Below are positions 36,854 through 39,362 of a stretch of 64,000 nucleotides of DNA, piece after piece. Made by a program: the position numbers and the translations under genes. Every line of letters begins with the position of its first letter. Positions within the stretch are counted from its first letter, which is position 1. Source of the stretch: an uncultured Acidobacteriota bacterium (GTDB lineage: Bacteria > Acidobacteriota > Thermoanaerobaculia > Multivoradales > UBA5704); the NCBI GenBank assembly GCA_963698025.1, contig OY969112.1, forward strand, positions 5,445,200-5,509,199, read 5' to 3'. A model generated the notes under the pieces. It made no database searches and was not told where the DNA came from. It saw only the letters and a program-made list of their open reading frames with translations.

Positions 36854-37893
36854 AGCGGCTGTCCGCTCTCGGAGCGGAGGAGCGGGAGCGCCTCCTGCTG
36901 GTGCGCGCCGAGTCTGGAGATCCGGCCGCGATCCGCGCGGCGCTGTCGCAGACCCGCGCCGCCTTCGGCCCGCTCCAGGGGGTGTTCCACACTGGGGGCG
37001 CTTTCACCGGCGGGCTGATCCAGCTCAAGACCGCCGAGGCCCTGCGCGCCACCGTCGATCCCGCGGCGCTGGGTGCCCAGGCCTGGCTGGCGGCCTTCGC
37101 GGCCGAGCCGGAGCCGCCTGCTTTCTTCCTCTTGATGTCCTCGACCCTGGCGTTCACCGGTGGGCTCGGGCAGCTCGACATCGCCGCCGCGGGCGCGTTC
37201 CTGGATGCCTTGGCCCGGCGCCATGCCGCCGGCGGCGGCCCGTTCACCGTGGCCGCGCATTGGGACCCCTACCAGTGGGATGGCTGGCTGCTCGCCGCCG
37301 CGGCCGGCGTCGTCGCCGGGTTGCAGCCGGCGGAGATCCACAAGAACCTGGAGGCCTGGGGCATCGCCACAGAGCGCAGCGGCGAGGCGCTGCGCCGGCT
37401 GCTCGCCGCCAGCCTGCCGCAGGTGATCGTGGCCTCGCGCGACCTGCCCGCCATGATCGCCGAGGCGGACTCGATCACCGCCGACACCCTGTTCGCCCAG
37501 ATGGCGCCGATGCACCGTGGCGAGAAGGCGCAGCGCCCCGGGCTCGCCACTGCCTACGTGGAGCCGCGCGACGAGCGCGAGCGGCACCTCGCCGCCCTCT
37601 GGGAGGAACTGTTCGGGATCGCGCCGATCGGCGCCGAGGACAGCTTCCTGGAGCTGGGCGGCCACTCCCTGCTGGCGATCCAGATGGTGACGCAGATCCG
37701 CGCCCTGTTCGAGGCCGACCTGCCGGTGACGGCGCTGTTCGAAGCGCCCACGATCGTCGAGCTGGCGAAGCTGATCGGGCGGGCGAAGGGGGAGGAGAGC
37801 CCCGAGGATCTCGAGGCCCTGTTGGCCCTGATCGAGGGGCTCTCGCCCGAGGAGGCGGCCGAGAAGCTGGCGTCCATGGAGGCCGCGCTGTGA
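36826..37893 (+). CDS. PKS fragment 4: KR catalytic subdomain remainder, carrier domain and C-terminal docking tail (frame 1)
   Basis: VFHTGGAF ... LMSSTLAFTGGLGQLDIAAAGAFLDALA ... [15 protein letters not shown] ... LASMEAAL stop. Confidence 0.55.
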   Translation, partial: GGDVLGAAVKRLSALGAEERERLLLVRAESGDPAAIRAALSQTRAAFGPLQGVFHTGGAFTGGLIQLKTAEALRATVDPAALGAQAWLAAFAAEPEPPAFFLLMSSTLAFTGGLGQLDIAAAGAFLDALARRHAAGGGPFTVAAHWDPYQWDGWLLAAAAGVVAGLQPAEIHKNLEAWGIATERSGEALRRLLAASLPQVIVASRDLPAMIAEADSITADTLFAQMAPMHRGEKAQRPGLATAYVEPRDERERHLAALWEELFGIAPIGAEDSFLELGGHSLLAIQMVTQIRALFEADLPVTALFEAPTIVELAKLIGRAKGEESPEDLEALLALIEGLSPEEAAEKLASMEAAL

Positions 37894-39362
37894 GCGTTGC
37901 CGAGCGCCTCTCCGCGCTCACCCCGGAGCAGCGCGCCCTGTTCGAGGCGCTGCGCCGCAGGCAGCAGGAGAGCCAGGCCGCGAAGCCCCTCCTGCCGCCG
38001 CCGGTGCTCCGGGTCACCGGCCCCACCGCGGCCGGCGACTGGCCGCTGTCGATCGATCAGGAACGGCTCTGGCGCATGCACCGGGAGAACCCCGCCCTGG
38101 TCTCCTGGAACGTCGACGCCGCCAGCCGCATGCGAGGGGAGATCGCGGTGCCGGCGCTGGCGGCGGCCCTGCGCGAGCTGATCCGCCGCCACGCCGCTTG
38201 GCGCGCGACCTTCCCGGTGGCCGGCGGCCGGCCGGTGCAGCGGATCGTGGAGTCGGTCGAGCTGGACTTCGCGATGATCGACGTGGCGGCCCTGCCGGCG
38301 GAGCTCCGCGAGGCCGCGGGGCGCCGCGCCCTGTTCGATCGCACGCGGGCGGTCTTCGACCTCGAGCGCGGGCCGCTGGTGCGCGCCGCCCTGGTGCGGA
38401 CCGGGGAGCGCGATCACTTCTGCCTGCTCACCGTGCACCACATCGCGACCGATTGGATCACCTTCCAGATCGCCTTCCAGGAGCTGATGGCGCTGTACGA
38501 GGCCGCCCGGACCGGAGCCCCGAGCCCGCTGCCGGAGCCCGCGTTGCAGTTCCCGGACTACGCCGTTTGGGAGCGCGAGCAGTGGAGCGGCGAGACGTTG
38601 CAGGATTACGCCGAATTCTGGGGTGCCGAGCTCGCCGGCTTCCCGCTCGCCTTCGACCTGCCCGGCGACCGCCCCCGCCCGCCGGTGCAGAGCCAGCGCG
38701 GCGGCATGATCCCGTTCACCTCCGGTCCCGAGCCGGCCCACCGGCTGCGCGCCCTCGCCCGCCGCGAAGGGGTGACGACGTTCATGGCCCTGCTCGCCGT
38801 CGTCGACGCCCTGCTCTTCCGCCTCTCCGGCCGGGAGAAGCTGGTGGTTGGCTCGAACAGCGCCAACCGGCCGCGGCCGGAGCTGGAGCCGGTCGTCGGC
38901 CTGTTTCTCACCCAGGTGCCGTTCGCCGTCGACCTCGCCGGCGATCCGACGTTCCGCGAGCTGCTCGCCCGCGTCAGGAAGTCCTCTCTCGCCGCCTACA
39001 CGCATCAGAACATGCCGTTCGACAAGCTGGTCGAGATCCTGGCGCCGGAGCCCGATCCGAGCCGCAACCCGGTGGTGCAGGTGCTGCTCCTCGTCCTCGC
39101 CGGGCAGAGCCACGGCGGCGGCGAGAGCGTCGACTCCGAGGCGGTGCCGCTGTTCGACGGCAACTCGCGCTGGGACCTGATGTTCGGCCTCTACGACTAC
39201 GACGACCTGGGGTTCTCCGGGCCGGTGGAGTTCAACGCCGACATCCTCGACCGTCCGACCGTGGAGCGCTGGCTCGGCCTGTTCCGCCGCATCCTCGACC
39301 GGGTGGTGGCCGACCCCGACGCGCGGCTGTCGTCGCTGCCGTCGCTCGCGGAGGGCGCATGA
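37890..39362 (+). CDS. Free-standing NRPS condensation-domain protein with N-terminal docking helix
   Basis: The GTG start at 37890 overlaps the PKS stop (GTGA). The 490 aa product begins [24 protein letters not shown], carries a variant active-site motif HHIATDWITF (HHxxxD with W for G), and has no A or T domain. Its stop overlaps the ATG of the next gene (ATGA). Confidence 0.85.
   Translation: MSVAERLSALTPEQRALFEALRRRQQESQAAKPLLPPPVLRVTGPTAAGDWPLSIDQERLWRMHRENPALVSWNVDAASRMRGEIAVPALAAALRELIRRHAAWRATFPVAGGRPVQRIVESVELDFAMIDVAALPAELREAAGRRALFDRTRAVFDLERGPLVRAALVRTGERDHFCLLTVHHIATDWITFQIAFQELMALYEAARTGAPSPLPEPALQFPDYAVWEREQWSGETLQDYAEFWGAELAGFPLAFDLPGDRPRPPVQSQRGGMIPFTSGPEPAHRLRALARREGVTTFMALLAVVDALLFRLSGREKLVVGSNSANRPRPELEPVVGLFLTQVPFAVDLAGDPTFRELLARVRKSSLAAYTHQNMPFDKLVEILAPEPDPSRNPVVQVLLLVLAGQSHGGGESVDSEAVPLFDGNSRWDLMFGLYDYDDLGFSGPVEFNADILDRPTVERWLGLFRRILDRVVADPDARLSSLPSLAEGA

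Follow-up and report, generated by a model that had tools for sequence, protein, structure and literature searches.

The stretch of DNA analysed here (the window; 64,000 nucleotides from an uncultured Acidobacteriota bacterium, with a G+C content of approximately 74%) carries on its forward strand a hybrid assembly line, in which a nonribosomal peptide synthetase (NRPS) gene is followed by a polyketide synthase (PKS) module, a gene for a free-standing condensation (C) domain and two further NRPS genes. The product of the free-standing C gene (37890..39362, + strand; 490 aa), referred to below as free C, appears to be a working enzyme. We consider it somewhat probable that free C is a donor-side-only C domain, which would act on a beta-ketoacyl-peptide bound to the acyl carrier protein (ACP) of the PKS without a carrier-bound acceptor; that it off-loads or branches the ACP-bound chain is put forward more tentatively.

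The free C reading frame runs from a GTG codon at position 37890 to a TGA codon at 39360-39362 and overlaps each neighbour by 4 nt: its start lies in a GTGA that also holds the PKS stop codon, and its stop lies in an ATGA (39359-39362) that also holds the ATG of the next NRPS gene. A Shine-Dalgarno-like GGAGG, read from the sequence, is present 7 nt ahead of the GTG codon (37878..37882, + strand), and in a frame plot of the G+C content at third codon positions (GC3) the coding frame changes exactly at both junctions. Translational coupling with both neighbours, proposed in an earlier note on this DNA, is upheld by the overlaps and the GC3 switches. Within the 490 aa the Pfam scan recognized the Condensation family PF00668 alone (residues 49-485; 263 bits, cut-off 30.6) and no adenylation (A) or thiolation (T) domain, and NCBIfam returned only generic NRPS models scoring far under their cut-offs; the description of free C as a free-standing docking-plus-C protein therefore stands. 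The protein is composed of (i) an N-terminal docking element (residues 1-30; 37890..37979, + strand), (ii) a Pro-rich flexible linker with no predicted secondary structure and a pLDDT of approximately 60-65 (residues 31-48; 37980..38033, + strand) and (iii) the C domain, recognized by PF00668, AlphaFold2 and Foldseek (residues 49-485; 38034..39344, + strand). AlphaFold2, run on free C with 34 homologues, gave a confident C-domain fold (pLDDT 83, pTM 0.81), for which Foldseek returned TM-scores of 0.79 to Txo2 (6p1j) and 0.75 to TycC6 (2jgp), and of 0.75-0.80 across Txo2, TycC6 and FscG C3, with an X domain among the best structural matches. In the N-terminus AlphaFold predicts only helices, at residues 3-8 and 12-30, and no strands; the docking element expected earlier is thus present, as two predicted helices and not as the single one described.

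Free C belongs to a set of three paralogous units, in each of which a docking element precedes a C domain, and the other two open the next NRPS gene (at 39359; its first C domain is termed G3-C1) and the following one (at 47137; G4-C1). The paralogy had been claimed at the DNA level, together with the statement that the next gene begins with another docking helix plus C domain, and both points were confirmed: the units share 63-78% nucleotide sequence identity, and 71-83% in their first 75 nt, which encode the docking helix. Free C is 51% identical in amino acid sequence (67% in nucleotide sequence) to G3-C1 and 52% (63%) to G4-C1, and G3-C1 and G4-C1 are 70% (78%) identical to each other; the single internal C domain compared, G3-C2, shares 41% amino acid identity with free C. 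The active-site motif reads HHIATDWITF in free C, HHLVTDFISF in G3-C1 and HHxxxDGWS in most internal C domains of the assembly line. The variant HHxxxD(W/F)xSF described before is therefore common to the three C domains, with the correction that free C has Thr in place of Ser. The D(W/F) pair is not a mark of free C; it is a feature of the whole clade, found also in N-terminal C domains that must elongate, and paralogues with F, W, M or L at the Gly position likewise lie in modules that must elongate. The Gly is also missing in two C domains of the first NRPS, namely the starter C domain (HHIVADF; approximately 17081-17101, residue 810) and an internal C domain (HHVISDA; approximately 26990-27010, residue 4113), both of which retain a C5 motif of canonical type; its loss is thus not limited to C domains that bear a docking helix.

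The C5 motif of the three N-terminal C domains is non-canonical (G.FLTQVPF, against GFFVNTLxLR elsewhere). Free C hence lacks the canonical core motifs of LCL domains (DGxS and GxFVNTLxLR), reading DWIT and GLFLTQVPF instead, and motif alignment revealed no epimerization (E) domain motifs (HHxxxDGxSW, EGHGRE) in it. Profile searches nevertheless ranked Txo2, Txo1, DhbF and TycC6 on top, with 314 bits for Txo2, 244 for TycC6, 163 for SgcC5 and 82 for Bamb_5915 (6cgo), and approximately 75 bits for the E domains of GrsA and TycA; E, Cy and starter types fell far below LCL. Free C is therefore a C domain closest, by sequence and by fold, to characterized LCL domains.

Orthologues of free C are widespread and conserved. 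A protein search retrieved more than 100 cluster representatives (471-617 aa; 60-95% identity to free C) composed of PF00668 alone or of PF00668 and a short PF00501 stub, the named ones originating from Thermoanaerobaculia metagenome-assembled genomes (MAGs). When one genome per species was scanned, approximately 50 free C loci were found in Acidobacteriota MAGs (55-95% identity), labelled mostly Thermoanaerobaculia, otherwise Thermoanaerobaculaceae or Holophagales. The domains of these loci were mapped by phmmer with seeds from the window, and synteny was followed in L001, L003, L004-L056 (with L050 left out as not being a free C), L078, L079 and L087. Wherever the sequence suffices, the order is an NRPS ending in A-T, then KS-AT-KR-ACP, free C and a gene beginning with C-A-T, with a 4-nt overlap of free C with its upstream neighbour in 37 and with its downstream neighbour in 35 of the 56 loci; the exceptions are a few loci with an extra inserted gene and a few fragmented long-read contigs. 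In two genomes a gene of approximately 1200-1270 aa, in which only a von Willebrand factor A domain is recognizable, lies between PKS and free C (L056, 2200-5844; L028, 6140-9946).

In a local neighbour-joining tree, built from domains of the same cluster family, 49 free C sequences form a single exclusive clade, nested inside an exclusive clade of N-terminal C domains bearing the docking helix. Mean identity is 66% within free C, 49% to the first C domain of the neighbouring gene (neighbour C1) and 39% to internal LCL domains. Since a degenerate A-domain N-terminus of approximately 120 residues is kept in L032, L038, L041, L044 and several proteins of approximately 600 aa, the family would go back to one old event in which a helix-C-A-T gene was truncated or partially duplicated. 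The ratio of nonsynonymous to synonymous substitution rates (omega; Nei-Gojobori, nine pairs) is 0.11-0.33 for free C, compared with 0.07-0.35 for KS and 0.13-0.37 for the next C domain (pairs in which the latter is orthologous), and between L007 and L030 free C is more conserved than the PKS itself. Both His residues and the Asp of the catalytic motif (HHIATDW, residues 183-189; 38436..38456, + strand) are invariant among the orthologues, as is the Trp at the Gly position and the intervening Thr (H183, H184, T187, D188, W189); in the docking element R6, L10, P12-L17, L21 and R22 are invariant in 34 orthologues. Residues specific to the free C family are H64, W73, A147, W189, E228, L401, W428 and Y435. 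Purifying selection and the invariant catalytic residues make a functionless remnant very unlikely and argue that free C is a working enzyme. Of the suggestion that free C is a duplication remnant, the origin by duplication and truncation was thus retained, and the loss of function was abandoned for a family that is monophyletic, old and under selection.

Natural gene fusions point to the partner of free C. The PKS and free C form one protein, KS-AT-(KR)-ACP-C, in four loci (L035, L042, L081 and L104), and a single reading frame encodes T-KS-AT-ACP-C-C-A-T in L031. None of the fusions retains the N-terminal helices of free C, which are cleanly excised, and L031 has also lost those of the next C domain; the helices would thus be a docking device that is dispensable on covalent linkage, and the PKS ACP would be the carrier served by free C. 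What stays between ACP and C in the fusions is the helical tail of the PKS, (E/D)DLEALLAxxEGLSxEEA. In the window it corresponds to the C-terminal docking region ESPEDLEALLALIEGLSPEEAAEKLASMEAAL (37795..37890, + strand), which is kept in the fusions L035, L042 and L031 and is also present in L080. As far as can be judged from these arrangements, the fusions show the PKS ACP as the probable partner of free C and the C-terminal helical region of the PKS as the predicted docking site of its N-terminal helices. Unusual domain orders occur in some of the upstream NRPSs: C-T-C-T without A domains (L039, L054) and A-C-T, in which a C-like domain separates A from T (L035, L042, L081, L104).

The next subunit carries a helix almost identical to that of free C. 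In L080, which has no free C, a helix-bearing C-A-T subunit directly follows the same type of PKS (59% identical, with the same dead KR and with the tail present). The tail of the PKS must hence serve both free C and the next subunit, as the earlier proposal of a common docking partner had it. The near-universal docking pair also makes whole-gene variation possible: a 2144-aa two-module gene (C-A-T-C-A-T) separates free C from the orthologue of the next gene in L001 (11479-17913), L004, L005 and L078, and is not present at the 39359 junction of the window or in L006. Its presence or absence looks like natural gene-level gain and loss between paralogous helix-C units.

The PKS module (33112..37893, + strand) comprises KS, AT, an inactive KR and an ACP, followed by the docking region. 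Its AT carries the HAFH motif of malonyl type. In the KR (approximately 37000-37250) the motif GQLDIAAAG lacks the catalytic Tyr, and the NADPH motif is degenerate. Across the free C loci the KR reads GQxD(I/L/V/A/Q)AAAG wherever it is readable (about half of the loci), compared with ..DY(A/C/S)AAN in the active KRs of the same scan, and the domain is missing altogether in L031 and L042. With a malonyl-type AT and a dead KR, the ACP would carry a gamma-amino-beta-ketoacyl thioester, i.e., a peptide extended by one unreduced acetate. Dehydration or acylation of a beta-hydroxyl group by free C was considered and ruled out, because the KR has no catalytic Tyr or is absent (L031, L042).

In the window, KS, AT, KR and PP-binding are recognized by Pfam in separate frames, the PKS being split over four reading frames. 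Locus L001, with 91.6% nucleotide sequence identity to the window, has an intact gene of 1579 aa, and compared with it the window has frameshifting deletions at approximately 34694 (-1), 35987 (-19) and 36830 (-1). A fourth break is located at approximately 61885 in the last NRPS gene, and all four fall at G runs of 6-7 bases. Long contigs of ENA assemblies contain many broken NRPS genes, while the genes are intact in short-read MAGs, and omega of KS and AT between the window and L004 and L006 is 0.16-0.38. A genuine PKS pseudogene that orphans free C is thus unlikely, considering the omega values, the G runs and the error-rich assembly type, and the frameshifts are probably errors of (long-read) assembly. 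This explanation leaves the enrichment of breaks in the PKS unexplained: three of the four fall there, although just 8 of the 63 homopolymer runs of 6 or more bases in the cluster belong to the PKS (hypergeometric p of approximately 0.005).

The acceptor side of free C differs from that of its relatives. In the PCP-C structure of FscG, residues W2579, L2580 and V2584 together with A2907 and V2908 form the hydrophobic interface with the acceptor peptidyl carrier protein (PCP), and R2577 is the gate (PMC8097023). Residues R2577, W2579, L2580 and V2584 were taken as positions 0, +2, +3 and +7 of the motif QER-L-W-F-L-x-x-L. In helix 1 of free C (DQERLWRMHRE; 38052..38087, + strand) positions +3 and +7 are R62 and E66. 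At position +3, 47 of the 50 free C sequences have Arg or Gln, whereas 53 of 56 neighbour C1 domains have Phe and 37 of 40 internal LCL domains have Phe, Leu or Val; at position +7, 43 of the 50 free C sequences have Glu or Asp, whereas 55 of 56 neighbour C1 and 38 of 40 internal LCL domains have Leu. The two positions map to L2580/V2584 of FscG and to F24/L28 of SrfA-C (numbering checked against 2VSQ). The latter pair presumably contacts the carrier in SrfA-C, and the FscG interface residues were used as the reference instead. VibH has Gln (Q10) and Ala (A14) at +3 and +7 (sequence checked against 1L5A). The lost helix-1 contacts, taken with L080, suggest that free C is not needed for elongation and is without the usual acceptor-carrier binding; most likely, free C does not use a carrier-bound amino acid as its acceptor.

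The specificity codes of the A domains following free C vary highly between loci (Lys/Orn-like, Gly-like, Val-like, Ser-like and unknown; in the extraction, a GrsA reference returned its known code), so free C is not linked to any one acceptor amino acid. The variable downstream code also rules out that the two successive C domains acylate a diamino or hydroxy amino acid twice.

On the reading that we favour, the PKS ACP would deliver its beta-ketoacyl-peptidyl thioester to the donor side of free C, which would couple or hydrolyse the chain with a nucleophile held on no carrier (water, a free amine or an internal group). A side branch or an early off-loading point would arise in competition with the C domain of the next subunit, which bears the same docking helix and would carry on the main line. 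The part of a branch enzyme suggested for free C is in line with the activities of the characterized free-standing C enzymes VibH, OaaC, Kj12C, Bamb_5915 and Zmn19. There are precedents for free-standing C domains that accept ACP- or PCP-bound donors and soluble acceptors (PMC13310621, PMC9113145), and a single C-terminal docking motif can recruit more than one downstream partner (PMC9113145).

Several points weigh against this reading. Its main weakness is that the fusions tether free C to the ACP, and yet the downstream modules are under purifying selection (omega of 0.13 and 0.26 for the downstream C and A domains in the ACP-C fusion pair L035 and L081); L031 has both C domains and A-T in one polypeptide. 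The chain thus clearly moves past this point, so an efficient terminator is unlikely and any off-loading would be partial or conditional. In helix 1, free C still has the gating Arg (R59) and W61, and the link between helix 1 and carrier binding is taken from other C domains. No gene for amine formation or for another partner was identified in the window and the extended contexts, the end of the cluster lying beyond them; in the contexts P0122, P0124, P0131 and P0133 a partner carrier, a thioesterase (TE) or an amine-forming gene was sought, and only more NRPS genes were found. All functional statements made here about free C are, moreover, deduced from sequence. The same searches bear on the suggestion of the earlier note that free C adds an amino acid loaded elsewhere, which is not supported, as no such carrier was found in them and the acceptor-carrier contact residues are lost.

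Foremost among the alternatives, though itself improbable, is in-line processing, in which free C would occupy the place of E in a T-E-C-A-T order and work on the ACP-tethered beta-keto intermediate with the thioester kept, either as a catalyst (gamma-carbon epimerization, enol chemistry) or as an X-like platform for a trans-acting enzyme, and the C domain of the next subunit would perform the actual condensation. Such a role requires no acceptor carrier, matching the lost helix-1 contacts; it suits the cis fusions, in which ACP-C is followed by C-A-T or forms ACP-C-C-A-T and downstream modules remain selected, and the retention of HH...D in both C domains at all loci. The match to the X domain and the resemblance of FLTQVPF to the E-domain FTTxFPV point the same way. 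True E domains, followed by C-A-T, occupy the same place after the PKS ACP in the distant PKS relatives L082 (10601-11965), L086 (15233-16609) and L090 (5097-6458); the C domain after E scores weakly there against the LCL seed, which makes it DCL-like by score alone. The AT of these three loci is of malonyl type (HAFH), so their E domains have no alpha stereocentre to epimerize. Against in-line processing, sequence and fold place free C with LCL and not with E domains (314 bits for Txo2 against approximately 75 for E), EGHGRE is absent, the E-like C5 motif also occurs in neighbour C domains for which condensation is indispensable, neither a concrete reaction nor a partner enzyme suggests itself, and L080 works without free C.

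Trans-condensation, in which free C would join the ACP-bound donor to the aminoacyl-T1 of the next subunit and the C1 domain of that subunit would be bypassed, is unlikely and ranks next. It would explain why free C and PKS are strictly linked as a cassette while the downstream A code varies widely and whole downstream genes, such as that of 2144 aa, come and go; an ACP fused to free C resembles a normal T-C junction, and a PKS dimer would offer two C-terminal docking regions, one per partner. Two of the three hydrophobic helix-1 contacts with the acceptor carrier are, however, lost in free C, and in L080 a domain of C1 type directly follows the same type of PKS. Neighbour C1 itself has an intact HH...D motif at all loci, and its omega gives no sign of relaxed selection, which speaks against its being bypassed; the related idea that free C replaces a degenerate neighbour C1 was ruled out on the same grounds.

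We give slightly less credence to a broader version of the processing role, namely that free C founds a class of processing domains dedicated to the PKS ACP and placed in series with a canonical C domain, a C-C tandem like E-C or Cy-Cy. The reaction on the gamma-amino-beta-ketoacyl thioester could be, for example, epimerization next to the ketone or the recruitment of a trans-acting tailoring enzyme.

Much less probable is that free C is a functionless relic, left when the 5' end of the downstream NRPS gene underwent a partial tandem duplication, and acts at most as a docking decoy. Among its paralogues free C is indeed closest to the N-terminal C domains encoded by its neighbours, an A-domain stub in decay persists in some orthologues, and L080 does without free C; a single ancient origin with retention in approximately 50 species-level genomes, omega as low as that of KS, invariant catalytic residues and W189, independent fusions to the ACP and the conservation above that of the PKS between L007 and L030 are hard to reconcile with it. 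An annotation or assembly artefact, in which the C domain would really belong to the next open reading frame (ORF), as its start, or to the PKS, as its end, with sequencing errors behind the apparent stops, can be practically dismissed despite the four frameshifts in the neighbouring genes and an assembly type rich in broken NRPS genes, as the orthologues already contradict it: a second complete docking helix plus C domain and not an A domain follows the stop, the stop-restart is kept in most of approximately 55 loci (with the same 4-nt overlap in short-read assemblies with intact ORFs, among them L001, L004 and L006), and proteins of approximately 490 aa are called in more than 100 clusters.

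The remaining genes of the assembly line are large. The first NRPS gene (14654-33091, + strand; 6145 aa) encodes FAAL-ACP-C-A-T-C-A-T-T-C-A-T-C-A-T-C-A-T, with tandem T domains in its second module (22808-23338); in relatives, up to four (L017) and three (L016) tandem T domains were observed. The next NRPS gene after free C (39359..47140, + strand; 2593 aa) has the order docking helix-C-A-T-C-A(MT)-T and a C-terminal docking region. The following one (47137..62040, + strand), which opens with the third docking-helix-plus-C unit, starts with TTG in a TTGA overlap and continues in another frame from 61878 to beyond 64000 (C-A-T-E-C-A-T-E-C-A-T-C-A(MT)-T). At least eight further NRPS modules follow free C within the window. 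Divergently oriented beside the start of the first NRPS gene is a gene of the Haem_oxygenas_2 family of iron-containing redox enzymes (13552-14268, - strand), which may be a tailoring enzyme of the cluster. The region 1-13500 contains ordinary housekeeping and signalling genes (amino-acid permease, PAS-GGDEF-EAL, FIST, methylmalonyl-CoA mutase, a helix-hairpin-helix protein and class II ribonucleotide reductase), which places the left border of the cluster near 13.5-14.6 kb.

A donor-only C domain that is conserved and under selection mid-line, stands in series with another, intact C domain and is sometimes fused to the ACP would break the textbook rule of one C domain per junction. If off-loading is true, the junction could be a programmed branch point, giving two product families from one line in a large group of uncharacterized lipopeptide-polyketide clusters of Acidobacteriota; if an in-line role is true, it could be a new tailoring role for the C superfamily. 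The near-universal pair of docking helix and tail, together with whole-gene gain and loss, could serve plug-and-play engineering of NRPSs as a ready case to study.

Most known stand-alone C domains act at the end of a pathway. Literature searches on this cluster family and on PDB 8z0q found nothing. The acceptor of one of them, Kj12C, is an amine. Like free C, Kj12C of the rhabdopeptide/xenortide (RXP) NRPS of Xenorhabdus is a separate C protein that bears a docking domain at its N-terminus, and the C-terminal docking motif of its upstream partner is shared with elongating subunits bearing similar N-terminal docking domains (PMC6195595, PMC9113145). It takes a carrier-bound donor and no carrier-bound acceptor, which for free C is a proposal. 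Kj12C docks through a beta-hairpin domain on a short linear motif, unlike the two predicted helices of free C and the helical region of approximately 32 aa that would receive them, and it ends its pathway, whereas free C stands mid-line before approximately eight modules and has a PKS ACP as its probable partner. More generally, free C differs from C proteins of the type with a beta-hairpin docking domain and a short linear motif (Bamb_5915, Kj12C, TubC type) in having no alpha-beta-beta-alpha-alpha domain and a partner motif that is not shorter than 15 aa. Bamb_5915 of the enacyloxin pathway is likewise a docking-plus-C protein of a hybrid PKS-NRPS system, using a polyketide-type donor and a soluble acceptor (PMC9113145), but it is only weakly related to free C in sequence, has another docking fold and acts in terminal release with a dedicated PCP.

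With VibH, OaaC and Zmn19, which use small-molecule amines as acceptors, free C shares the lack of a cis A or T domain, and with VibH also the lack of hydrophobic residues at the acceptor-carrier site of helix 1. The donor of OaaC is bound to an ACP (PMC13310621), and Zmn19 is reported to follow a PKS-NRPS line (PMC5811116). All three act at the end of their pathways and fall into other C clades (OaaC, with DHxxxDS, is near the starter C domains), whereas the line continues after free C. Free C is also comparable to the E domain in T-E-C-A-T and to the X domain of glycopeptide synthetases, C-superfamily domains that stand after a carrier, ahead or in place of the next catalytic step, and act without an acceptor carrier, as proposed for free C; its motifs, unlike those of E, are LCL-derived, and, unlike the X domain (HRxxxDD), it keeps both catalytic His residues. 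The best sequence and fold matches remain LCL domains at subunit N-termini (Txo1 and Txo2 of teixobactin, TycC6), which have the same HHxxxD core; free C differs from them by Trp for the motif Gly, FLTQVPF for FVNTLxLR, the absence of an A-T partner and altered helix-1 contacts. By analogy, free C would work most like the docking-bearing stand-alone C proteins Kj12C and Bamb_5915, from which it is distinguished by its helical docking fold, its mid-pathway position and its placement in series with a second, intact C domain.

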